This document shows positions 13,524 to 60,256 of a stretch of DNA of 64,000 nt, one piece after another. The notes beneath the pieces were generated by a model that was not told the DNA's origin, did not search any database, and saw only the letters and a program-made list of their open reading frames with translations. Source of the DNA: Anaerolineae bacterium (lineage in GTDB: Bacteria; Chloroflexota; Anaerolineae; Anaerolineales; E44-bin32). Within the stretch, counting starts at the first letter, position 1; every line of letters starts with the position of its first letter. Made by a program: the position numbers and the translations under genes. Where the stretch lies: positions 171,857 through 235,856 of the forward strand of contig BTQZ01000001.1 in the NCBI GenBank assembly GCA_036986135.1, read 5' to 3'.

Positions 13524-15050
13524 TTGGCGCGCTTGCACGAATATCAAGGAAAGGCGCTTCTCAAGGCGCTCAAGATCGCCGTCCCGAAGGGAGAGCCCGC
13601 CCGGAGCCCCGATGAAGCGCGAGCAATCACCGAGGAATTGGCATGCCCGGTAGCAGTGAAGGGCCAGGCATGGGTAACTGGCCGCGCCGGGTACGGCGCG
13701 ATTCGCTTCGCTAAGACGCCCCAAGAAGCAGGTGAGGCGGCCACCGCAATCCTCGGAATGCAGATCGATGGTTTCCAGGTAGATACAGTGCTGGTCGAAG
13801 AGAAGCTCGACGTCGAAAGGGAATTCTATGCCGGGCTGATCATCGACGACCGTTGCCAGGCGCCGGTGTTGATCTTCAGTAGCCAGGGTGGAAGCGGGAT
13901 CGAGGAAATCGCACGCGAGCATCCCGAATCCATCGCCCGGGAAGTCATCGATGTTCGCCGCGGCTTGTCCGAATATCGGGCACGTGACCTCATCCGCCAG
14001 GTCGATCTGCACGGGAAGCTTCAGGCCGGCCTGGGCCGCATGGTAAGCCAACTCTACCAAGTTGCCCGGCGCTATGATGCGCGCGCGGCTGAGATCAACC
14101 CCATCGTGCTCACCACGGAGGGTGCGCTCTACGCGGCAGATTGCCGTATCACCGTGGACGACAACGCGGTTTACCGTCACCCGGATCTCGGAATTGAGGT
14201 CGCCCGCGAATTCGACAGGCCTGCCTCGCGCCTCGAAACCATCGCGTGGCAGGTGGAAAAGGACGACTATCGCGGAACCTTTTATTTCATCCAGCTCGAG
14301 CACGATTTCGAAGGTGGAGAGGGAGTGATTGGTTTTCATGGCGCCGGCGGTGGAGGCTCAATGATGAGCATGGATGCCGTGCTGAACCGCGGCTACCGGC
14401 TGGCAAATTTCGTGGACACAAGCGGGAACCCGCCGGCCTCCAAGGTATACCGCGCGGCGCGAATTGTGCTGGCTCAGGAAGGAATCGATGGGTATTTTGC
14501 CTCCGGCTCAGGAGTGGCTTCACAAGAGCAATTTCACAGTGCGCGCGGGCTTGTCAAAGCCTTCATGGAAGTTCCGCTGAGGGTGCCGGCTGTGATCCGA
14601 CTGGGCGGCAACGCCGAAGACCGAGCGATCGCGATCCTGGAGCGAGCGCGTGACGAGATTCCAGCACCGGTCGAGGGCTACGGCAAGGATGATGCCCCCG
14701 AATTCTGTGCCGAGAGACTTGATTATTTAGTCCGAAACCTCGAGCCGCGTGCTGAGAAACATGACGGCTGGAGCCGATCCGAGCCCCGGCAGCCGTACAG
14801 CTTTGGGACGGTGACCGGCGGCGAGGTGACGCTCGACCATCGAGCCTGCCAAGATTGCGCGTCCAAGATCTGTATTGAAACCTGCGTGCCCGGAATCCTC
14901 GAGTTGCAGGGTGGTCTCCCGGTCCTGAATATCACGCCGGAGGAGGCCCAGAAGGGTGGTTGTAGCGAGTGCCTGGCCTGTGAAATTGAATGCTTCTTCG
15001 AAGGCAACCGCGGCGGGTATGTCAGTCTGCCGATTGCAGGGCTCGATTGA
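13524..15050 (+). CDS. SucC/CcsA-like ATP-grasp CoA ligase beta-type subunit with a C-terminal 2x[4Fe-4S] ferredoxin-like domain
   Basis: TTG start. The N-terminus [13 protein letters not shown] matches the SucC N-terminus. The C-terminal 80 aa carry [15 protein letters not shown] and [11 protein letters not shown]. Confidence 0.75.
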
Positions 15051-15163
15051 TCCGAGGCTTCGGATGAGTGTCCCCAAGCAGTTCCCGGCAACCGGCGCAT
15101 GCCATGTCACCAGGCTCATAACTGAAACACAGAGATCCGAATTTGGCAGACGCAGAGGTCTGA

Positions 15164-16075
15164 ATGGCCGTCCTGATTAACGAGACCAAGCGGGTGCTGG
15201 TGCAAGGCATCACCGGTCGTGAGGGAAGCGCGCGCGCGCATTTGATGAAGGAATATGGAACCCAGGTAGTGGCTGGCGTGACGCCAGGGAAGGGCGGCAA
15301 AGACGTCGTTGGAATTCCGGTATTCGATACCGTCTTGGAGGCCATCGAGCGGGCCGGACCGATCGACGTCAGCGTGCTATTCATTCCCGCGCCATTGGTA
15401 AAGGGAGCGGCTCTGGAAGCGATCGATGGCGGGGTCAAGCTGCTCATTATCGTCCCGGATCGCGTACCGATCTACGATGTGCTGGAAATTGCCGAGGCCG
15501 CCAAGCGAACGGGAGCGCGATTCGTTGGTCCGAATACCCTTGGGGTACTCTCCCCGGACAGAGCGGTGCTGGGAATGATCGGTGGACGAGCAAGCTCTGC
15601 AAGATCCTGGTTCTTCCCTGGGCCGGTCGGCATCGCCTCGCGCTCTGGTGGGATCACGTCCTCGATGGCTTACTACCTGGGCCAGGCAGGGATCGGCGCT
15701 ACGACCCTTCTGCACGTGGGCGGGGATCCGGTGGTTGGGACGCCGCTTCCGGACGCTGCCGAGCTCTTTGAAGGGGATCCGGATACCAAGGCCATCGTGA
15801 TGTTCGGCGAGATAGGCAGCAGCCAGGAGGAACGGGTTGCTGACCTTGTAGAATCGGGAGCAGTGACTAAGCCGATCGTGGCGTACATCGGTGGGAAAGC
15901 AGCCAAGAGCGGGACTCGATTCAGCCACGCCGGCGCGATTGTCGAGGGCAGCCGCGGTACATATGAGGGCAAGGTGAAACGCCTGCGAGAAGTGGGTGTG
16001 ACGATCGTGGAAGCGTTTGGGGAACTACCGCAGGTGACGGCAAATGTAATGAAAGAGCATGGGATCCATCAATGA
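15164..16075 (+). CDS. SucD/CcsB-like CoA-binding alpha-type subunit
   Basis: 303 aa with [17 protein letters not shown] and the phosphohistidine loop SHAGAIV. Confidence 0.8.
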
Positions 16076-16851
16076 GTGAATCTAGCTGGAAGACCTCTAT
16101 TACCGAGATCAAGCCCAATGAAGTGCGATTGCGGGGCTACTTGATCGATGAGTTGATGGGCCGGGTCAGCTTCGGCCAAGCGGTACACCTCGCGCTGAAG
16201 GGCGAGCTCCCAACATCGGAGGTCGGGAAATTGCTGGATGCGATCCTGGTCTGCTCCATCGACCATGGCGCCTCGCCGCCATCCGCTTTGGCGGCGAGAA
16301 CGGCCGCCTCCACCGGAGCGCCGCTAAATGCTGCTGTGGCCGCCGGCCTGCTCTCGATCAACCGCTACCACGGAGGAGCGATCGAGGATTGCATGGCGGT
16401 GCTAGAGACAGGAATTGAACGCGCAAGAGAGGCCGGAAGCCAGCTCTCAGAAGTCGCCGGAGAGCTCGTGCAAGAGCATCGCGCGGCCAAGAAACGGATC
16501 CCCGGGCTGGGCCATCGGATTCATGCCAAAGACCCGCGTACTGGCAAGCTCTTCGCGCTGGCCCATGAAGCCGGAATTGCGGGTCAGGGCGTGGAAATGA
16601 TCCGGGCTCTCCGGGAGGCGATGGCAGCTGACGGGAAGGAGCTGCCGATCAATGTGGATGGCGCGATCGCGGCGCTGCTCATAGACATGGAGATCCCGCG
16701 TAAGCTTGGCAACGCATTCTTTATGATGGCGAGGGTCCCGGGCTTGGTGGCACAAGTTCATGAGGAGCAAAGCCGCGAGCGTCCCATGCGCCGGATCCAT
16801 CCCACAGATCACATCTATGACGGCCCCGATGCCAGGTCGTTGACGGAGTGA
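16072..16851 (+). CDS. Citryl-CoA lyase-like protein (short citrate-synthase-fold protein)
   Basis: 259 aa with HGASPPS, INRYHGGA and GLGHRIHAKDPR. Overlaps the upstream gene by 4 nt. Confidence 0.7.
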   Translation: MSESSWKTSITEIKPNEVRLRGYLIDELMGRVSFGQAVHLALKGELPTSEVGKLLDAILVCSIDHGASPPSALAARTAASTGAPLNAAVAAGLLSINRYHGGAIEDCMAVLETGIERAREAGSQLSEVAGELVQEHRAAKKRIPGLGHRIHAKDPRTGKLFALAHEAGIAGQGVEMIRALREAMAADGKELPINVDGAIAALLIDMEIPRKLGNAFFMMARVPGLVAQVHEEQSRERPMRRIHPTDHIYDGPDARSLTE

Positions 16852-16858
16852 GGCAAGC

Positions 16859-17401
16859 ATGTCAGAAGAATTAATGGAACTGATCCCCGAGTTTCGTCTG
16901 ATCCAAGACCGCGACCTCCGTCAAAGGACACTGGCAGTGTGGCAGGAGGCGATGGAGATCGGGGGCTGGTCTGCAGATGACCTGCGCCGGATGCCTTATA
17001 CGCTGCTGGTTGAAGGGGTGGACATCCCCTTTCCCCAACACGTCAGCGTCGTCTGTCGTCTGTGCGTCGCCATGCTTGACATTCTTCTGGAAGACTATGG
17101 CGATCGGTATGAGATCGACCGCGACACCCTGATCGCAGGCGCACTGCTTGCGGATGTCGGCAAGCTGATTGAATTCCGCGAGCAGGACGGCGAATACCAG
17201 TGGGCGAGCATGTACAAGTACCTGCGACACCCATTCACCGGCGTGGGGCTGTGCTTCAAGCATGACATACCTGAAGCCGTGATGCATGTGGTCGCTACCC
17301 ATTCATGGGAGGGGGACAAGTTCAAGCGACGACCGGAGTCCATCATTTTTCATCACGCCGACTTTACCGATTTCGATCTCACGAAGTTCGCGAGCAGCTG
17401 A
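16859..17401 (+). CDS. HD-domain-like protein with a degenerate metal motif
   Basis: 180 aa. GALLADVGK occupies the position where HD proteins carry GxLLHDIGK. Confidence 0.5.
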
Positions 17402-17403
17402 GC

Positions 17404-18660
17404 ATGGGACAGACATTCGCTGAGAAGGTTCTAGCCAAGAAGGCGGGCGTGGAGGCGACCTCCCCCGGAGAGATCGTCGAGATTTCGCCTGACGTCGCCC
17501 TATCCCACGACAACACGGCGCCAATACGAGGGATATTCGAGGAGATGGGCGGGGTCAGGGTGCATGATCCTGAGATGCATGCCATCTTCTTGGACCATGC
17601 CGCGCCGGCGCCAACCACGCAGCACGCTGAGAACCATCGCATTATTCGTGAATTCGTGCGCGATCAGGGTATCCCGCACTTCTTCGACGTGGGACGCGGC
17701 ATTTGCCACCAGGTCCTGGTTGAAGAGGGATTGGCGCTGCCGGGGGAAGTGGTGCTCGGATCCGATTCGCACACCCCGCATGCGGGCGTGATGGGGGCCT
17801 TCGGCGCGGGAATCGGCCGCAGCGAGATGGCATCCGTATGGGCATTGGGGAGTCTGTGGCTGCGAATCCCAGAAAGTCTACAGATTATCGTCCACGGGGA
17901 GCTTCCGCCTGGAGTTACAGCCAAAGATCTTGCGCTTCACGTCATTGGTGATCTGGGCGCGGATGGCGCGCTATACATGTCGGTCGAGTGGCATGGAGAT
18001 GCGATCCGACGGCTGGGTTTGAGCGAGCGGGCGGTGCTGCCCAACATCTCAGCGGAGATGGGCGCCAAGAACAGCTACCTCCCTCCGGACGAGCTGGTCT
18101 TCGACTATCTCGAGCGCCGAGCCCAAAGGGCATATGAAGCCGTATTCCCGGATCCTGACGCCGAGTATGCCAGGAAGGTCGAATATGAGGCTGATACGTT
18201 GGAAGCTATGGTTGCCTGTCCACACACGGTGGATCACGTGAAGCCGCTGTCCGAGGTTGCAGGCACGCGCGTGGATCAGGCGTTTATCGGCACCTGCTCC
18301 AATGGCCGCTTGGAGGACTTGGCGTCCGCGGCCGAGGTGCTGGCCGATCGACAAGTAGCCAATGGCACCCGCCTGATCGTGATCCCGGCCTCATCTGAAG
18401 TATTCAAGCAGGCCTTGGGCGCGGGCTACATCGATGTCTTCCTACAGGCTGGCGCACTGCTTCAGAGCCCCGGCTGTGGGCCCTGCATGGGGAATCACAT
18501 GGGCGTGCCGGCAGTCGGTGAAGCCACCATCAGCACCGCCAATCGCAATTTCAAGGGGCGCATGGGCACCAAGGAGAGCGAAATCTATCTGGCCAATCCG
18601 TCGGTGGTCGCCGCTTCGGCGGTGGCAGGCGAAATCTGCAGCGCGAACGATTTGAATTAG
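17404..18660 (+). CDS. Aconitase-superfamily hydro-lyase large subunit (archaeal-type LeuC/HacA, 418 aa)
   Basis: Start chosen at [15 protein letters not shown]. Motifs GSDSHT, GTCSNGR and CGPCMG (FeS ligands). The track start at 17305 overlaps the previous gene. Confidence 0.85.
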
Positions 18661-18674
18661 GAGACCTGAGCGAG

Positions 18675-19175
18675 ATGAGCATCATCAACGGGCGCGTTTG
18701 GAAATACGGAGATAGCGTAAACACCGACGTCATCTTCCCCGGCAAGTACACCTACACTGTCAGCGATCCGGCCGATATGCCACAGCATGCGCTGGAGGAT
18801 TTGGATCCGTGCTTTGCCGCGGAGGTGCGGCCGGGCGACATCATCGTCGCCGGGAAGAACTGGGGCTGCGGCTCATCCCGCGAGCAGGCGGTGACCTGCT
18901 TGAAGGAGAGCGGGGTGGGCGCCATCGTAGCCGAGTCCTTCGCTCGCATTTACTACCGTAACTGCCTGAATGCGGCCCTGCCGGCGCTGACCTGTGCCGA
19001 GGCGGTTGAGAACATCGAAGACGGACAGCAGATCGAAATTGATCTGGAAGCCGGCGAGATTCGCAGTTCCGAAGGCACCTTCTCGTTTCCGCCGCTTCCG
19101 GAAGCGGTGATGGGGATCTTTGCGGCCGGAGGTCTGGTGCCCTACACGCGACAGCGTATCCGAAAGGGGAAGTGA
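18675..19175 (+). CDS. Aconitase-superfamily hydro-lyase small subunit (LeuD/HacB type)
   Basis: 166 aa with [13 protein letters not shown]. The substrate loop reads PGKYTYTV. Confidence 0.85.
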
Positions 19176-20287
19176 TGTATCGAATAGCCTGGATGCCCGG
19201 CGATGGCATCGGCGCGGAGGTCATGGAAGCAGCCAGGATCGTCCTGGATCGCTTGGAGCTGGAGGCGGAATACGTGCCGGCCGATATCGGGTGGGAGTTC
19301 TGGTGCACCGAAGGAGACCCGCTGCCCGAGCGCACGATCGAGATCCTGAAGACCTGCACTTGCGGTCTCTTCGGCGCTATCACTTCTAAACCTAAAGAGG
19401 AAGCCGCCAAGGAACTTGCCACTGAGCTACAAGGCAAGGGCCTGAGCTACCGCAGCCCGATCGTGCGGCTGCGCCAACACTTCGATCTCTATACCAACTT
19501 GCGGCCCTGCAAGGCTTATCCTGGAAACCCGCTCAACTACCGCGATGATGTCGATCTCATCGTGTTCCGCGAGAACACCGAAGGACTCTACAGTGGGATC
19601 GAGTTCCATCCCCTTCCTGACGAGGTCCGGCGCGTGATGGCGAAGCACAACCCCGCCATGGCTCGCTTCGATGGAGTGGCGGGCGATGAGATGGCCGTGA
19701 GCCTACGGGTGATTACCAACGTGGGCGCGCGGCGGATCATCAAGAAGGCGTTCGAGTATGCGCGGGATTTCGGCTACCCCACCGTCACTCTGGTAGAGAA
19801 GCCCAATGTGCTGCGCGAGACCAGCGGGCTCATGCGGAGGGCGGCCGCATCCGTTGCGAAGGAATTCCCCACCATTGAACTCTGGGAAACCAACATCGAT
19901 GCCCAGATGATGTGGCTGTTGAAGAACCCGGATGATTACGGCGTGATGGTAACCAGCAACATGTTCGGCGACATCCTTTCCGATCTGTCAGCCCAGTTGG
20001 TAGGGGGTCTGGGCTTCGCCTCAAGCGGAAATATCGGCGATGAGTTTGCGGTTTTTGAGCCAACCCATGGTTCCGCGCCCAAATATGCCGGCCAATACAA
20101 GGTCAACCCGACCGCCATGCTGCTGGCGGCAAAGCTGATGCTCGAATGGCTAGGCGAGCGCGGGAAGGCCGAGGCGCTTGATGCTGGGATGGCGGCCGTG
20201 ATCCATGAGGGTAAAGTACGTACCTACGATATGGGCGGTGACAGCTCGACCCTCGAGATGGCCCAGGCGGTAGCTGACCGCCTCTAA
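19172..20287 (+). CDS. Beta-decarboxylating dehydrogenase (isocitrate/homoisocitrate/isopropylmalate dehydrogenase family)
   Basis: 371 aa with [31 protein letters not shown] and NMFGDILSD. The start is either GTG at 19172 or ATG at 19175, overlapping the upstream stop. Confidence 0.85.
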
Positions 20288-20373
20288 GCATTCCCGTCCT
20301 ACAGTCGGGGACCGCCTGCTTCGGTAAGCGGGATGCTCGCGGGGCTTGGCTCGATATCAATGAGGATCAATAA

Positions 20374-21750
20374 ATGAGTTCGATCAGCCATCAAATGGCA
20401 GAGTTCGCGCACGCGCTGCGCTACGAAGACATCCCCGCGGTAGCTATTCACGAAGCCAAGCGCTTCTTGCTTGACAGTGTTGGATGCGCCCTGGCCGCGG
20501 TGGACAATGACGACATGCAGGCCATGCACCGGTTTACAGAGAAGCTGGGGGGCACTCCGGAGGCGACCGTCATAGGAAGCGGGCTGCAGACGAATGCACC
20601 CAGTGCGGCATTGATGAATTGCCTGCTGGTCCGTGCTCTGGATTACAACGATATCTACTGGGTTCAGGATCCCAGTCATCCCTCCGACATCATCGGAGTC
20701 GCGCTGGCGGTGGCGGAGGCGAACCAGAAGAGCACCGTTGAGGCAATAGTGGCCATCGTGATCGCATATGAGCTGGAGATGCGATGGTGCCATGCTGCCG
20801 AGCCAGGCATCCGGGAGGTGGGATGGCACCATGCCTCGCTGACGCAGTTCGTGAGCCCGCTGGTCGCGGGTCGGCTCTATGATCTCGACCTGGATCAGCT
20901 TGTGGCGGCGGTTGGAATCAGCGGCAGCAGCCACTTTACTCTCGGCGGAGTGGTTGCGGGTCACCTGACGAACATGAAAAACACTGCCGATCCCCTGGCG
21001 GCACAGGCCGGCGTGCTTGCTGCGCTCATGGCGCGGGAAGGCTGCAGTGGACCGGTGGAGGTGATCGAGGGGAAGGAAGGGCTGATCGAAGTTCTGTCCA
21101 ACGTGGAATGGCTGGAGCAGGAACTGACGAAGGGGCTGGGATCGGATTTCCTGATCACGAACTGCAGCTACAAGGCCTTCCCAACCGAAGCTCTCACGCA
21201 CCAGCCGATCAGCGCCGCGCTGGCAGTGTGCCGTGATCACGGCATTGCTCACGATCAGGTGGCTGAGCTGCTGGTGGAGACCACTACTCGTGGCGCCGAT
21301 ATCCTCTCCGATCCGAGCAAGTACAAGCCAGAGACGAAAGAGACCGCAGACCACAGCCTCCCGTACGTAATCGCGGCCGCGGTCGTGGACGGAAACGTCC
21401 TGCCAGAAAGCTTCAGCGTAGAAAAGCTGAAGGACCCACGAATCCGAGAGCTGCTTCCGAAGATCAAGGTGGTCGCCGATTCTGAGATTGACGACCTCTT
21501 CCCAAAGATCAAACGCGCCCGCGTGACGATCACAACCACCGACGGCCAGAGTCACACTGCGCAGACGGATGTCGCAAAGGGCGATCCAGCAGATCCCATG
21601 AGTGACGAGGATATCGAGGCCAAATTCCGGGACAATGCGCATGGAGTTCTAGGCTCCGCGCGGATGGATGAAGTGATTGAAGCGACCTGGCAGCTCGATG
21701 GCCTAGCCGGCATGCGCGAATATCTAGGGCTTCTCACATCCGACATCTAA
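20374..21750 (+). CDS. MmgE/PrpD-family dehydratase
   Basis: 458 aa. The overall PrpD-like sequence starts MAEFAHALRYEDIP. The antisense 447-aa ORF on the opposite strand is treated as an artefact. Confidence 0.8.
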   Translation: MSSISHQMAEFAHALRYEDIPAVAIHEAKRFLLDSVGCALAAVDNDDMQAMHRFTEKLGGTPEATVIGSGLQTNAPSAALMNCLLVRALDYNDIYWVQDPSHPSDIIGVALAVAEANQKSTVEAIVAIVIAYELEMRWCHAAEPGIREVGWHHASLTQFVSPLVAGRLYDLDLDQLVAAVGISGSSHFTLGGVVAGHLTNMKNTADPLAAQAGVLAALMAREGCSGPVEVIEGKEGLIEVLSNVEWLEQELTKGLGSDFLITNCSYKAFPTEALTHQPISAALAVCRDHGIAHDQVAELLVETTTRGADILSDPSKYKPETKETADHSLPYVIAAAVVDGNVLPESFSVEKLKDPRIRELLPKIKVVADSEIDDLFPKIKRARVTITTTDGQSHTAQTDVAKGDPADPMSDEDIEAKFRDNAHGVLGSARMDEVIEATWQLDGLAGMREYLGLLTSDI

Positions 21751-22412: not shown

Positions 22413-24272
22413 ATGTCTGCTGAATCTCGGGTGAGGCTAAACCCGCCTGTTTCCGATCGGGATCACACGAAAGGACCCGACGACTCGCCCGTAACGCTCG
22501 TCGAGTACGGCGACTACGAATGCCCGTATTGTGGACAGGCGGAGAACTCGGTCCATGAGATTCAGGAGCGCACTGGCGACGCAGTGCGGCTGGTCTTCCG
22601 CCACTTTCCCAATCGAACGGTACACCCACATGCCAGGCTCGCCGCGGAAGCGGCAGAGGCCGCTGGGGCGCAGGGCAAGTTCTGGGAAATGCATGATCTG
22701 CTGTTTCAGCATCAGGATCGTCTGGAAGAATGGGACATGGTCGAGTACGCGCGTGAGCTGGGCCTGGACGAGGGTAAGTTTCGTGCCGAGCTAGAAGAAC
22801 ACAGGCACTCAAAGACGATCCATGAGGATTTCAGGAGCGGCATAGAGAGCGGGGTGCAAGGTACGCCGACCTGGTTCATTAACGGCACGCGCTACGACGG
22901 AGCATGGGATCCAGAATCCCTCCTGGAAGCCGTACGCAAGCCGATGGGCGTACGTATCAGTGCGCTGACGCAGGAGTTTACGCGCCTTGCGGCCTCCGGC
23001 GGGCTGATGCTTCTGATCTTCAGCGCCTTGGCACTGCTCTGGGCCAACTCTGCTTTCGCCGAGTCATATTTTCAGCTCTGGCAAACGGAAATTGGGATTT
23101 CCCTGGGCAATCTCCATCTCGAAAGATCCCTCCTGGAGTGGGTCAACGAAGGCCTCATGGTGATCTTCTTCTTTGTCCTGAGTCTGGAGATCAAGCGCGA
23201 GGTCACCGCTGGGGAGCTCGCAAGTGTGAGGAAGGCGGCATTGCCCATAGCCGCGGCCGCAGGTGGAATGTTTCTGCCGGCACTGATCTATGCCGCATTT
23301 AGCTTCTCAAACCCGATCGCGATGCGGGGGTGGGCAATTCCGGTAGCCACCGATATCGCGTTCACACTGGGCGTACTGGCCTTGCTCGGCGGGCGCGTAC
23401 CGCTCTCCCTCAAGGTATTCTTCACCGCCATGGCTATTGCGGATGACGTGGGCGGTATTCTGATCATTGCGCTCTTCTATACCTCTGAGATCAACGTTGC
23501 AAGCCTGGTGGTGGCGGCCATTTTCTTCGCCGGCCTGCTGGTTCTGAACCGGTGGCGCGTGTTCTCGCCGCTGCCTTATGCGCTGCTTGGCATCGGACTG
23601 TGGTTGGCTTTCTTGTCCTCCGGCGTCCATCCTACGCTCGCCGGCGTACTGCTTGCGGCCACGATTCCGACCCGCAGCCCGCCAAACGTTTCGAGACTTA
23701 TGGCGCAGACGGATACGGTACTCAATCGGTATGAATACGACGACGATGAAAGCCGCGAGCAGGCGCTGGTTCATGCATTGAAGACGATCCTGGATCGCAT
23801 GGAGCCGCCGGCCCAACGGCTCGAGCACGAGCTGCAGCCATGGGTAACCTATTTAATCTTGCCCATTTTTGCGCTGGCCAATGCGGGTGTCCCATTAGGA
23901 GGCGCGGACGGCCTCGCGCTCTTTAATCCGGTTAGCCTGGGAATTATCTTCGCCCTGGTTCTGGGAAAGCCAATCGGGGTTGGGATCTTTGCCTGGCTAG
24001 CAGCGAGGACCGGAGTGGCCGAGAAACCGCTGGACATCAGCTGGCGTCAATTCTTTAGCGCCAGCGTCTTGGCCGGCATCGGCTTCACGATATCGCTCTT
24101 TATCGCACAAGCGGCCTTCCAGGATTCAAGGCTGCTCTCCAACGCGAAAATCGGAATACTGGCGGGCTCGATCCTTGCCGCGGGAGTAGGTTGGGGGCTG
24201 CTCAACCTGAACAGCCCGCGATATGACACGGTTACTGAAGTGCAGGCGGAGCCTGCGCCGGCCACTGATTGA
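22413..24272 (+). CDS. nhaA: DsbA-like thioredoxin domain fused to the NhaA Na+/H+ antiporter
   Basis: The N-terminal region of about 170 aa carries CPYC. The C-terminal polytopic domain has NhaA motifs (AIADDVGGIL, PIFALANAGV). Confidence 0.85.
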   Translation: MSAESRVRLNPPVSDRDHTKGPDDSPVTLVEYGDYECPYCGQAENSVHEIQERTGDAVRLVFRHFPNRTVHPHARLAAEAAEAAGAQGKFWEMHDLLFQHQDRLEEWDMVEYARELGLDEGKFRAELEEHRHSKTIHEDFRSGIESGVQGTPTWFINGTRYDGAWDPESLLEAVRKPMGVRISALTQEFTRLAASGGLMLLIFSALALLWANSAFAESYFQLWQTEIGISLGNLHLERSLLEWVNEGLMVIFFFVLSLEIKREVTAGELASVRKAALPIAAAAGGMFLPALIYAAFSFSNPIAMRGWAIPVATDIAFTLGVLALLGGRVPLSLKVFFTAMAIADDVGGILIIALFYTSEINVASLVVAAIFFAGLLVLNRWRVFSPLPYALLGIGLWLAFLSSGVHPTLAGVLLAATIPTRSPPNVSRLMAQTDTVLNRYEYDDDESREQALVHALKTILDRMEPPAQRLEHELQPWVTYLILPIFALANAGVPLGGADGLALFNPVSLGIIFALVLGKPIGVGIFAWLAARTGVAEKPLDISWRQFFSASVLAGIGFTISLFIAQAAFQDSRLLSNAKIGILAGSILAAGVGWGLLNLNSPRYDTVTEVQAEPAPATD

Positions 24273-39455: not shown

Positions 39456-40970
39456 GTGGACATGACATCCTTCTTTTCCCGCCTCACCGACCGCGCCCAG
39501 GCGGCAGATTCGCTGCTGTGCGTGGGGCTCGATCCGCATCCTGAGTTGTTGGGGGATCCTTCCGCGGCGGCCGCGCGCGACTTCTGCCTCAAGCTCATCG
39601 AGGCCACTGCTGATTTCGCCTGCGCATTCAAGCCCAACAGCGCCTTCTTCGAAGTCTTTGGTGCGCCGGGGTGGGCTGCACTGGGGGATGTGATCGCGAG
39701 AGTGCCGGAAGAAATCCCGGTGATCCTGGACGCTAAGCGGGGGGATATCGCTTCGACCGCGCGCCAATACGCGCGGGCGGCCTTCGTGTCGCTCGGCGCC
39801 GACGCGCTGACCGTGAACCCCTATTTGGGTCATGATGCGGTCGAGCCATTCATCGAAGATCGAGCTCGCGGGATATTCCTGCTTTGTAAGACCTCCAATC
39901 CGGGATCGGATGACTTTCAGTCTCTCGAAGAGGGCGGCGAGGCGATCTACCTCCATGTGGCTCGGGCGGCCGAGCAATGGAATAAGAAGGACAACGTGGG
40001 CCTGGTCGTCGGCGCAACGGATCCTGTGGCGTTGGCGGCGGTTCGCTCGGTCGCTCCTCGGCTCTGGATCCTGGCGCCGGGCGTGGGATCGCAGGGGGGG
40101 GATCTCGAAGTAGCGCTGCGCTCCGGATTGCGTCCGGACGGGCTCGGGATGCTGATCGCTGTCTCGCGCGGCATTGCCGCCGCGTCCTCCCCGCGGGAGG
40201 AGGCGGCGCGCTTGCGGGAGGCCATCCATCGCGTCCGATCAACGCATTTAGATTCCAGTGGCGGGAACACAGTCTCAGTGCTTCTCACACCGGCGGCCAC
40301 CCATCGCGTTCGCCCGACTTATTTGCAGCCCGGCAGCCGCTCGGCGCCTACCTCGGGGACCCTCAACCAAGAGCAAGCAGCTCTAGCGGATGCAATCCTG
40401 GGTGCCGGATGCGCGAGGTTCGGCGATTTCGAACTAAAGTCCGGCGAGCGCTCGCCGATCTATTTCGATCTTCGCCTGCTGGCGGGGCATCCCAAGCTGC
40501 TCTCCCGTGTTGCAGGCGCATATCTTCCTATCCTGCAGCGGCTCACTTTCGACCGGCTGGCGGCAGTGCCGTATGCGGGATTGCCGATCGCCACTGCCAT
40601 CGCGCTGCAATCGGTCCGGCCATTGATCTATCCCCGGAAGGAAGTGAAAGAGTACGGCACCAAAGCTACTGTCGAGGGCGGTTTTGAACCCGGCGATATT
40701 GCAGTATTGATCGACGACCTCACAACAAGCGGGGGCAGCAAGTTCGAAGCGGTTGATAAACTCACGGCAGCCGGGCTGGAAGTGCGGGACGTGGTCGTAT
40801 TGATCGACCGACAAGCGGGGGCGAGTGAGGCACTGCTTGCGGCAGGTCTTAAATTGCACTCGGTGTTCACGCTCCGACAGTTGATCGGGCACTGGACCAC
40901 TTCAGGTATCCTCAATGAGGGCATGCTGGCAAAACTTGAAGAGTTCCTCGCTCGAGAGGCCACGGGTTGA
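39456..40970 (+). CDS. pyrF-pyrE: Bifunctional OMP decarboxylase (type 2) :: orotate phosphoribosyltransferase
   Basis: The N-terminal half has LCVGLDPH and LDAKRGDI. A linker of about 50 aa follows. The C-terminal half has FELKSGERSPIYFD and VLIDDLTTSGGS. Confidence 0.85.
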   Translation: MDMTSFFSRLTDRAQAADSLLCVGLDPHPELLGDPSAAAARDFCLKLIEATADFACAFKPNSAFFEVFGAPGWAALGDVIARVPEEIPVILDAKRGDIASTARQYARAAFVSLGADALTVNPYLGHDAVEPFIEDRARGIFLLCKTSNPGSDDFQSLEEGGEAIYLHVARAAEQWNKKDNVGLVVGATDPVALAAVRSVAPRLWILAPGVGSQGGDLEVALRSGLRPDGLGMLIAVSRGIAAASSPREEAARLREAIHRVRSTHLDSSGGNTVSVLLTPAATHRVRPTYLQPGSRSAPTSGTLNQEQAALADAILGAGCARFGDFELKSGERSPIYFDLRLLAGHPKLLSRVAGAYLPILQRLTFDRLAAVPYAGLPIATAIALQSVRPLIYPRKEVKEYGTKATVEGGFEPGDIAVLIDDLTTSGGSKFEAVDKLTAAGLEVRDVVVLIDRQAGASEALLAAGLKLHSVFTLRQLIGHWTTSGILNEGMLAKLEEFLAREATG

Positions 40971-41358
40971 GCTCAGCTCAGGTCGTCAGCCCGCGGCCGG
41001 CAACCGCTAGGTTCCAAGCATAATCACGAAATCATCGAGAAGAATCGCTGCGTAGATGTGATGATTTAGTGCGATCAAGGCGAGAAATGGCAGGGTCCAA
41101 CAGGTCAGGGAAGGTCCACCTATTGGCGAACTTGTGAAACTCGTTTTCTCAGGAACGGATCCTAGCGGCTACTACGTGGCGACCGCCGACATTTAGAGCA
41201 CGCCATTGAACTCAACGAAGGAAACAACTCTAAAGACTCTCATGCTCCAACAGCCACGCCGCCTCCACTTTGACTAACACACCCGATCCTGCAGAGCCCG
41301 AAGGAACAGATGTTCAGTCTTGAGATAAGAATGTGTTTAGGAGATGAAAGGAGATCGT

Positions 41359-41832
41359 ATGTCCAGAAACCTTACTTTGGCATCGCTGGCAGTTGTCTTG
41401 TTGGGCGCGTGTGCCACACCGGCCCCCACGCTCCCAGCCACGGACCTGCAGCATCCACTCGTCATCCGGGTATTCAAATCGCCCACTTGAGGATGCTGCG
41501 GCGGTTGGGTTCAATATATGGAACAGAATGGCTTTACTGTGGCCGCCGAAGAGGTCCAGGACTTGGCCGCAGTAGAGGCTCGTTATCTAGTCCCTAAAGA
41601 ACTCCAATCTTGCCACATTGCCATCGTAGATGGCTATATCATTGAAGGTCACGTGCCCGCGGCAGAGGTCCAGCGAATGTTGGATGAGCGCCCTGACATC
41701 ATTGGGCTAGCAGTAGTGGGGATGCCTCTGGGTTCACCGGGCATGGGTGGTGAGGGTTCTGCATCCGAGCCGTTCGATGTAATCGCCTTTGGTCAGGCTG
41801 GCCGAATTGAGGTATTCGCAAGCTATCCTTAG
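41359..41832 (+). CDS. CopG/DUF411-family metal-binding lipoprotein with an in-frame TGA at codon 44 (selenocysteine or nonsense)
   Basis: SD AAAGGAG, then the lipobox signal LLGAC. The sequence reads VFKSPT-TGA-GCCGGW, where the family has KSPxCGCC. Downstream are SCHIAIVDGYIIEGHVPA and GMPLGSPGM. The track lists only 41518..41832. Confidence 0.6.
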
Positions 41833-58529: not shown

Positions 58530-59924
58530 TCACTCGTTGAGCGCCGCTGCTAGGCCGCTCAACAGCGTCTGTTCCTGACCCGGCAACACCGTTCGCGGAT
58601 CGATCATCACGTGGTCATTCTCCACTCTGGCGACGATGGGCGGATCTGCCTTACGCAGCCGGTCAGCGAACGCGTTCGGGTGAGGAACATCCAGAGCCAG
58701 CAGCGAGGTGGGCAGGGTTTCCTCAGGCAGGCTGCCGCCTCCCACCGTGGAGCGGCCAGGCACCACTTCACCGGTTTCGAGCTGCTGAACCCATTCACCT
58801 GCGCGCCGCATTAACTGATCCTCGGAAGCGGCGATCATCATCCACACCGGGACCGCATCGGATGCCTCATCCATCATGAAGTGATTCAGAGTGGCGGAAA
58901 GCCCTGCCAGACACATCTTGTCCGGACGGACGGCACGCGCCATGGGATGCCTGGCAAGACGGTCGATCAGTGCCTTCTCGCCCACCAGGATCCCGGCCTG
59001 CGGGCCTCCGACCAGCTTGTCGCCCGAGAAGGCGACTAGATGGGCCCCCTCGCGGATCGATTCTTGCACCATCGGCTCGTGCCCGAGGCCGAACTGGGCC
59101 GTATCCAGCAAGGCGCCGGAGCCCAGGTCGTCCAGCACGGGCAGGTCATGTTTGTGGCCGACATCGATCAACTCCGGCAGGCTGGGCTCGGTGGCAAAAC
59201 CAACGATTTTAAAGTTGGAATGGTGAACACGAAGGATCAGCGCGGTCCTGTCGGTGAGGGCACCCTCGAAATCCTTCAGGTGGGTGCGATTTGTCGTACC
59301 GACCTCCCGCAGAATCGCTCCCGATTGCTCCATGATCTGCGGGATGCGGAAGCCGCCCCCGATCTCGATCAGCTGCGTGCGGGAAACGAGCACTTCCATT
59401 TCATGTGCCAGTACGGTGAGCACAAGCAGCACGGCCGCGGCGTTGTTATTTACGACAAGGGCGGATTCGGCCCCCGTCAATCGAACCAGGAGATGCTCGG
59501 CATGAACATCACGGCTCCCGCGCGCCCCACGCTCGAGGTCGTACTCCAATGAGCTGTATCCGGACGCCACGTCGGAAACGGCACGCTGGGCATCGGCGCT
59601 CAGCGGGGCGCGACCCAGGTTGGTATGGATAATGACGCCTGTGGCATTGATGACGGGTCGTAATGAAGGGAGCAGCCAGCTTTGCAGAGTGGCCCGTGTT
59701 CCGGAGATCAAATCTGCTTCTTCTGGAACATCCTGGCCCTGCTGGATCGCCAGCCGAGCGGATTCCAGGCTCGTACGAAGGGCCTGCACCGTAAGTGGCC
59801 GCCCGTACGCTGTGATGAGTTCGTCTGCCTGGTCCGCGCTGAGCAGGCGGTCGACCGAAGGCAAGTCACGCAAGCTCAACGGTTGGGCCTCCAAACGCTT
59901 CGTTCGAGGAGTCCGAGAAACCAC
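58530..59924 (-). CDS. selA: L-seryl-tRNA(Sec) selenium transferase
   Basis: Motifs LRDLPSVDRLL, VINATGVIIHTNLGRA and FSGDKLVGGPQAG (PLP Lys). The start is uncertain: GTG 59924, TTG 59894, or the track ATG at 60026. Confidence 0.85.
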   Translation of the reverse strand: MVSRTPRTKRLEAQPLSLRDLPSVDRLLSADQADELITAYGRPLTVQALRTSLESARLAIQQGQDVPEEADLISGTRATLQSWLLPSLRPVINATGVIIHTNLGRAPLSADAQRAVSDVASGYSSLEYDLERGARGSRDVHAEHLLVRLTGAESALVVNNNAAAVLLVLTVLAHEMEVLVSRTQLIEIGGGFRIPQIMEQSGAILREVGTTNRTHLKDFEGALTDRTALILRVHHSNFKIVGFATEPSLPELIDVGHKHDLPVLDDLGSGALLDTAQFGLGHEPMVQESIREGAHLVAFSGDKLVGGPQAGILVGEKALIDRLARHPMARAVRPDKMCLAGLSATLNHFMMDEASDAVPVWMMIAASEDQLMRRAGEWVQQLETGEVVPGRSTVGGGSLPEETLPTSLLALDVPHPNAFADRLRKADPPIVARVENDHVMIDPRTVLPGQEQTLLSGLAAALNE

Positions 59925-60256
59925 TCCAATAAAATGAAGCCGACTCCTAGAAGCAAACCCAACGAAAGGGTCAGCGATCGATTGATCTGCAGCCATACGG
60001 AGAATGAAACGAACAAGGCCACCCACAGCGCCTGCCGCAGCAGCACGGCGGAAGAGGCTGGGCCAAATCGCTTATGCAGCAACCATACAAAGGGAAGTGC
60101 GGTACCAGTGACGGCTATTGTGAGTAAGAAGAAGAACAGCCAACGCGGTCCGACGGTAGGCAGCGTCGTGGCCATGAGGAGGTACAGTCCGGTCCAGCCG
60201 ATCGCAATCAACAGCGAGGCGGCCGCAAACAGACCGCGGGACTGAGAACCAGACAT
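59876..60256 (-). CDS. Small membrane protein (4 TM), unknown function
   Basis: 126 aa and hydrophobic. Its 3' end overlaps the plausible selA starts. Confidence 0.45.
   Translation of the reverse strand: MSGSQSRGLFAAASLLIAIGWTGLYLLMATTLPTVGPRWLFFFLLTIAVTGTALPFVWLLHKRFGPASSAVLLRQALWVALFVSFSVWLQINRSLTLSLGLLLGVGFILLEWFLGLLERSVWRPNR

Follow-up and report, generated by a model that had tools for sequence, protein, structure and literature searches.

CopG of Pseudomonas aeruginosa (PDB 6WIS/6WJE), a member of the DUF411 family (PF04214), is a thioredoxin-like periplasmic protein which binds a tetranuclear copper cluster via a CxCC motif and two Met residues (reviews PMC7558416, PMC8456105). The same reviews give as its proposed role the interconversion of Cu(I) and Cu(II) and a part in copper resistance under anaerobic conditions. 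Selenocysteine (Sec) in place of a metal-ligating Cys is found in formate dehydrogenase (Mo/W) and in [NiFeSe] hydrogenase, where it is believed to adjust the redox properties and the resistance to oxidation; in a CopG-type Sec protein, on the contrary, the metal would be copper. Sec at a probable metal-ligand position, predicted by Sec/Cys pairing, is also found in copper and heavy-metal homeostasis, namely in the CopZ-family (2Fe-2S)-binding selenoproteins, the SO_0444 Cu/Zn efflux transporter, the YHS-domain selenoprotein and the E1-E2 cation ATPase. These belong to other families and folds, none of them is a DUF411/CopG protein and none carries a multinuclear copper cluster. The UxxC motif is the commonest redox design of prokaryotic selenoproteins (May 2026 review), with Sec-thioredoxin, glutaredoxin, DsbA-like and Prx-like proteins as its representatives in the thioredoxin fold. 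Sec decoding has been documented in the Chloroflexota (Chloroflexi), from which a tRNA-Sec of the 8/4 type is reported.

The window analysed here, that is, the whole stretch of 64,000 nucleotides from an Anaerolineae bacterium, contains a DUF411 gene at 41359..41832 (plus strand, as all features below with the exception of selA). In all probability, this gene encodes an exported, lipid-anchored CopG-type copper protein in which the UGA at 41488 is recoded to Sec, so that CxCC becomes U-G-C-C, and it is thus presented as a candidate selenoprotein. This reading rests on the conserved in-frame TGA, the Sec/Cys pairing, the coding constraint on both sides of the codon, the homology to CopG and the presence of SelA.

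The coding sequence, as determined by translation, Pfam and alignment to 6WIS, starts at an ATG at 41359 and comprises 157 residues (with U at position 44) plus a stop at 41830-41832, all in one frame, of which the TGA at 41488-41490 is the sole break. A Shine-Dalgarno-like AAAGGAG, read from the sequence at 41347..41353, lies 5 nt upstream of the ATG, and another in-frame ATG at 41344 provides an alternative start. By motif inspection, the N-terminus is a hydrophobic segment ending in LLGAC, i.e., a signal peptide (41359..41412) with the lipobox L-G-A-C, whose Cys18 (41410-41412) is the presumed lipidation site. The start, the Shine-Dalgarno sequence and the lipoprotein signal were described by the first-pass annotation and all are present at these coordinates; its single 157-codon DUF411 frame interrupted by one TGA was likewise borne out by the translation and the Pfam match. 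Among 52 Sec-form homologues (those with the TGA), 35 carry a lipobox-like motif and three an RR motif, again by inspection. The mechanical ORF list includes only the two halves of the gene, 41344..41490 and 41518..41832. Similarly, in GenBank the gene is stored only as its 104-aa 3′ part (P0001), a "hypothetical protein" of Anaerolineae bacterium BMS9Abin28. Elsewhere in the window, a single other TGA-bridged open frame is not overlapped by a long ORF (84-518, TGA at 270); neither of its halves matched Pfam and it is probably non-coding.

With a Cys put in place of the stop, the protein matches DUF411 over the full model (positions 1-48 of 48; E 3.1e-25, 88 bits with a cut-off of 27), and the core of the domain, determined by this match and the 6WIS alignment, extends over residues 82-129 (41602..41745). 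Residues 33-157 align with residues 2-124 of the 6WIS chain (E 1.2e-31). The homology covers the whole mature domain; SCH, EGHVP and GMPxGSPGM are conserved, and they and the site of CxCC have the same positions in both proteins. In detail, S-C85-H86, H98 and M122-P-L-G-S-P-G-M129 of the core correspond to the conserved His and Met positions of CopG. The TGA, within ...VFKSPT-TGA-GCCGGW..., coincides with the first Cys of the CopG motif NCGCC. The window motif accordingly reads U-G-C-C, with UGA in place of the first Cys and the other two retained (proposed Sec44, 41488..41490, placed by both the homologue column and the 6WIS alignment), and would be a complete copper-cluster motif only with the UGA decoded as Sec or Cys. 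The remainder of the copper-cluster motif, G45-C46-C47 (41491..41499), is invariant as G-C-C in the first 18 aligned Sec forms; some of the Sec forms beyond these have Ala in place of the Gly after U. The placement of the TGA at the first Cys of CxCC had been proposed earlier with the help of a family motif given as KSPxCGCC. Both the placement and the motif hold, the homologues reading YKSPTCGCC.

Both CopG and, by its signal motif, the window protein are exported. They differ in that the first CxCC Cys of the latter is UGA-encoded, and in that CopG is a soluble periplasmic protein of a proteobacterium, whereas the window protein is a lipoprotein of the Chloroflexota encoded outside a copper operon. 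With the UxxC selenoproteins of the thioredoxin fold it shares the motif (U-G-C-C being UxxC), the thioredoxin-like domain and the existence of Cys homologues. Unlike in these proteins, the motif of CopG ligates a tetranuclear copper cluster and is not known as a simple dithiol/disulfide couple.

Homologue DNA was retrieved for 172 loci, either out of collections of genomes and metagenomes or via look-up of exact proteins, with the TGA-form sequences drawn from NCBI, JGI, ENA and Logan. Long contigs or complete chromosomes with a TGA form include CP070764.1, CAVYDY010000001.1 and JADJXK010000002.1. In-frame translation showed a TGA in 53 distinct sequences and a Cys in 102 at the same column, the first Cys of CxCC, in agreement with the Sec/Cys pair suggested by the first-pass annotation. 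The TGA copies originate from independent genomes and metagenomes and are 45-91% identical. They belong mostly to Chloroflexota, but also to Methylomirabilota and Gemmatimonadota, and the labels of their metagenome-assembled genomes (MAGs) are Anaerolineae, Caldilineales, "Chloroflexia", Methylomirabilota and Gemmatimonadota. Their motif variants include SPT-U-GCCG[DGSN]W, SPG-U-ACC and EPG-U-GCC. A protein search with the window gene returned many matches of 104-106 aa with 70-91% identity, all over the same 66% of the query, which suggests that gene callers truncate these proteins at the same point.

The nearest relatives of the window copy are 91%, 88% and 77% identical, come from separate samples and all have the TGA. 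This applies to all of the closest relatives (91-70% identity, at least four independent samples), which is the opposite of a decaying copy surrounded by close relatives with TGC. Three loci (L161-L163) share the gene order of the window, pyrC-pyrB-pyrF-DUF411-FG-GAP-metallophosphoesterase. Close Cys forms with the same lipoprotein architecture are P0004 and P0040, at 69% and 65% identity, respectively. In a rough neighbor-joining (NJ) tree, one large clade of 38 members, including the window copy, consists exclusively of Sec forms, and seven small Sec groups with a total of 14 members are placed among the Cys forms. This topology requires at least seven Sec/Cys switches. One big Sec clade accompanied by several small ones is the usual pattern in selenoprotein families.

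Two sequences of this data set deserve separate mention. An ENA entry of 149 aa (P0009) has a Trp in place of the Sec (SPT-W-GCCGDW), apparently because a different code table was applied to the TGA, and thus illustrates a second type of misannotation in this family. In a Caldilineaceae MAG (L002:2800-3060), a DUF411 copy starts with ...HLQENGF; an in-frame N-terminus, a signal peptide and the U/CxCC motif are all missing, and the copy resembles a shortened remnant or the product of a join in the assembly.

As for the Sec machinery, the selA gene (L-seryl-tRNA(Sec) selenium transferase; 58530..60026, minus strand) is intact and located 17 kb from the DUF411 gene. Its product matches Pfam SelA with E 1e-133 over positions 1-366 of the 367 of the model, together with Se-cys_synth_N. 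The first-pass annotation was right about the gene but not about its extent (58530..59924): the ORF starts at a GTG and occupies 58530..60026, with 59924 presumably an internal start. It is the sole Sec-machinery gene in the window, as neither selB nor selD was found among the Pfam-annotated ORFs of the 64 kb, and ARAGORN detected no tRNA-Sec in the window or in 49 Sec-form loci. In the window, ARAGORN found no tRNAs of any kind and the Rfam scan gave no matches. We know of no role of SelA besides Sec-tRNA synthesis.

The RNA downstream of the UGA was compared with the published criteria for bacterial SECIS elements (bSECIS), that is, a loop of 3-9 nt with G in the first two loop positions, an upper stem of at least 4 bp, a spacing of 16-37 nt and an MFE of -7.5 kcal/mol or lower. 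The window copy, for which such a check had been proposed by the first-pass annotation, fails the strict model and passes a relaxed scan with an upper stem of 3 bp. A tentative candidate SECIS is an extended imperfect hairpin beginning at the UGA (41486..41560), obtained by the MFE fold and by RNAalifold on the 8-sequence subclade of the window copy. Its apical loop, GGAACAGA, is located at 41520-41527, 29 nt past the UGA, on an upper stem of only 3 bp; its MFE is -22.2 kcal/mol, but with a z of -0.8.

The hairpin contains a long-range stem, formed by the 5′ arm CGGCGGU (41499..41505) and the 3′ arm GCCGCCG (41542..41548), i.e., columns 15-21 and 58-64 of alignment A2. The pairing of CGGCGG (41499-41504) with CCGCCG (41543-41548), already seen in the first-pass annotation, is present in the MFE fold and is kept in 8/8 members of the subclade, but its covariation support is modest. 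In the subclade, 93.9% of the cells of the long stem are paired, a value reached by 7 of 500 shuffles. Changes on both sides were seen in two of its pairs, a number also attained by 65 of 500 shuffles. The respective series is GGCGG/CCGCC in the window, GGCGA/UCGCC in L161 and L165, and GGUGA/UCACU in L172. On the contrary, the small GUUC/GAAC hairpin suggested within this stem does not persist: its letters are present (41509-41512 and 41521-41524), but it is broken in every close relative.

Across the family, the signal depends on the clade. In the first 18 Sec forms, the strict bSECIS model was found in 4/18 versus 27/62 Cys controls. Folding energy past the UGA (45, 60 and 75 nt), relative to synonymous-codon shuffles, was not lower in Sec forms (mean z -0.27 vs. 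-0.18 in Cys forms, p 0.41). RNAalifold recovered no common column-fixed structure from 18 or from 38 Sec-form sequences, and averaged pairing-probability profiles showed no clear difference. Within the main Chloroflexota clade, 7/38 sequences pass the strict model, the same rate as in shuffles (41/228). In the small non-Chloroflexi Sec clades, 11 of the 14 pass; the rate is lower both in synonymous shuffles of these same sequences (37/84, p 0.016) and in Cys forms (36/98, p 0.004).

A textbook hairpin is found, for example, in three non-Chloroflexi loci (L026, L111 and L118), in which a 7-bp stem (GUGGGUG...CACCUAC in L026) carries a GGU loop 21 nt past the UGA, in the region of nt 18-34. This loop is a Gly GGU codon, at a place where most Cys forms encode Glu or Asp, so that the RNA element has apparently influenced the amino acid sequence. 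Taken together, a SECIS can be shown for some members of the family, whereas for the window copy its assignment is only tentative. Two other candidate structures were rejected. One of them, a hairpin noticed by eye whose loop holds the invariant Trp codon, is thermodynamically weak and shows no enrichment among Sec forms (p 0.79). The other, a CCAC/GUGG stem enclosing the UGA, was discarded since it would be open during decoding of the UGA.

A different signal was found in the codons past the UGA in alignment A3, which consists of the 38 main-clade Sec-form loci. The third Cys codon of U-G-C-C, at nt 10-12 after the U of the UGA (window 41497-41499), is TGT in 33/38 of these genes, whereas their other two Cys codons are TGC in 32/38 and 37/38 (p 8e-15). 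Cys forms have TGC at the site of the third Cys in 72 of 98 cases. The window copy and L161 are among the five main-clade exceptions to TGT. An invariant A 17 nt downstream is a possible pairing partner for the U of this codon, and a 4-bp helix is possible in 27/38 main-clade sequences versus 6/98 Cys forms; the hairpin formed in this way, however, is weak and does not outperform shuffles.

In order to decide how the TGA is read, four explanations were weighed. The coding sequence on both sides of the TGA is under purifying selection: in the subclade of the window copy, dN/dS is about 0.2-0.75 (mostly 0.3-0.5) for the 30 codons 5′ of the TGA and about 0.1-0.4 3′ of it. A single-base change from TGC to TGA would suffice for a nonsense mutation in a decaying gene or for a sequencing error, and the window copy has no copper-gene context. 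The conservation of the TGA excludes this explanation for practical purposes, since the same codon is found in 53 distinct sequences with 45-91% identity and from many samples; additionally, the frame has no further disruptions, dN/dS is below 1 on both sides and synteny is kept in relatives. Were the TGA a true stop, the products would be a lipopeptide of 43 residues and a separately initiated DUF411 fragment of 104 residues without CxCC. These are exactly the two ORFs which gene callers yield, and an ATG is found ten codons past the TGA in 29 of the 53 Sec forms. In 15/53, on the contrary, there is no ATG, GTG or TTG within 15 codons 3′ of the TGA, and therefore the conserved domain is not made by re-initiation there. 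The GCCGxW bridge from the TGA to the next Met is conserved at the protein level with synonymous variation, the 104-residue fragment would have neither the signal peptide nor the family-defining metal motif, and no Shine-Dalgarno-like sequence precedes 41518 in the window. Termination at this codon is thus very improbable.

A genome-wide reassignment of TGA was ruled out by the stop-codon usage of the window, in which 48 long ORFs end with TGA (22), TAG (15) or TAA (11); TGA being the commonest ordinary stop, the code is the standard one. Recoding of this UGA to Cys, by a tRNA-Sec-like tRNA-Cys (SelC*/tRNA-ReC) or by near-cognate read-through, would give an ordinary CxCC CopG. Molecules of tRNA-ReC which read UGA as Cys, with a SECIS present, are reported from several phyla (citing Vargas-Rodriguez 2018), and the main clade shows no canonical SECIS. 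The missing SECIS does not favour this explanation, because decoding by tRNA-ReC also needs one. The intact SelA of the window, an enzyme with no other known role, also speaks against it, as do the lack of a tRNA-ReC-like tRNA in the window and the retention of a costly UGA over many lineages without obvious benefit, with TGC one mutation away. Cys recoding is consequently considered unlikely, and insertion of Sec is the preferred reading.

Under Sec insertion, translation would start at 41359, SelB with Sec-tRNA(Sec), the latter made by the SelA encoded 17 kb away, would insert Sec at the UGA, and translation would then run on to 41832. The Sec would serve as a selenolate ligand and redox centre of a multinuclear copper site, and may adjust, outside the cytoplasm, how Cu(I) and Cu(II) are interconverted or how copper is handed on. 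Such a role seems the most likely one because the Sec is placed at the first cluster-ligating Cys, in a thioredoxin-like fold and within a UxxC motif. From the sequences we infer that Sec is actually inserted, that an RNA element would direct the insertion in the main clade and that the protein may act in copper chemistry.

In the search for neighboring genes, the CopA-type P1B ATPase was the commonest neighbor across loci (15 Cys-form and four Sec-form loci), and multicopper oxidases adjoin nine Cys-form loci. An example among the Sec forms is L098:1066-5207, where a csoR-like metal repressor (PF02583), a DUF411 gene with TGA at 1999 and a CopA-type P1B ATPase with HMA domains follow one another in an arrangement suggestive of a copper operon that includes the selenoprotein form. 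Some Sec-form relatives thus adjoin CopA and CsoR, in likeness to the association of the Cys forms with CopA and multicopper oxidases. No copper genes are located beside the window copy; its neighbors are pyrC-pyrB-pyrF on one side and the FG-GAP and metallophosphoesterase genes on the other. The association of DUF411 with copper genes is common but not strictly required.

Other neighbors were recorded in single cases. A TPMT/TehB-type methyltransferase is found directly 3′ of a Sec-form DUF411 gene (L165:2369-2971) and a gene with a MerB (alkylmercury lyase) domain about 2 kb 3′ of another (L167:6047-6706); the links of these two to metalloid and organometal chemistry are anecdotal. In the window, the pyrF ORF (39456-40970) has 504 aa. 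Its match to OMP decarboxylase is confined to residues 20-252, and no Pfam model matches the C-terminal half; the syntenic ORF of L161 has 477 aa. Further upstream, a citrate/TCA-related run (13524-21747) begins with an ATP-grasp_2 protein with a citrate-binding domain, a CoA-binding/CoA-ligase subunit and a protein with a citrate-synthase C-terminal domain, which resemble a citryl-CoA synthetase/lyase set, and continues with aconitase-family large and small subunits, an isocitrate/isopropylmalate dehydrogenase and PrpD. An ORF of 619 aa (22413-24272) encodes an N-terminal DsbA-like thioredoxin domain fused to an NhaA-type Na+/H+ antiporter.

The May 2026 review lists 119 prokaryotic selenoprotein families and subfamilies, with no entry for DUF411, PF04214 or CopG and no natural Cu-Sec centre. 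A full-text literature search for DUF411 or CopG as a selenoprotein returned nothing relevant, the text of BSepDB, which was built from previously reported families, does not mention the family, and NCBIfam has no matching model. In NCBI, JGI and ENA, the respective proteins are stored as 104-aa "DUF411" or hypothetical fragments. The Sec form of CopG therefore probably represents a further Sec/Cys selenoprotein family, absent from the catalogues searched, with the position at a copper-cluster ligand and the missing canonical SECIS of its largest clade as additional features. A more far-reaching proposal, which we regard as speculative, is that CopG-U is a widespread uncatalogued family whose Sec ligates the copper cluster, i.e., a natural Cu-selenolate, and that the Chloroflexota decode its UGA via a non-consensus RNA signal. 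Such a signal is hinted at by the strong site-specific synonymous constraint (TGT) 9 nt past the UGA.

These results add a probable selenoprotein family that is systematically missed by annotation pipelines and would extend the use of selenium to an extracytoplasmic copper-cluster protein. The largest clade, in which no SECIS is recognisable, is a test case for the divergence limits of bacterial SECIS elements. Natural Sec and Cys versions of one Cu4 site would reveal the contribution of selenium to copper redox chemistry and resistance. In the Chloroflexota of environmental and engineered habitats, where the family is abundant, it would link the availability of selenium to the handling of copper.
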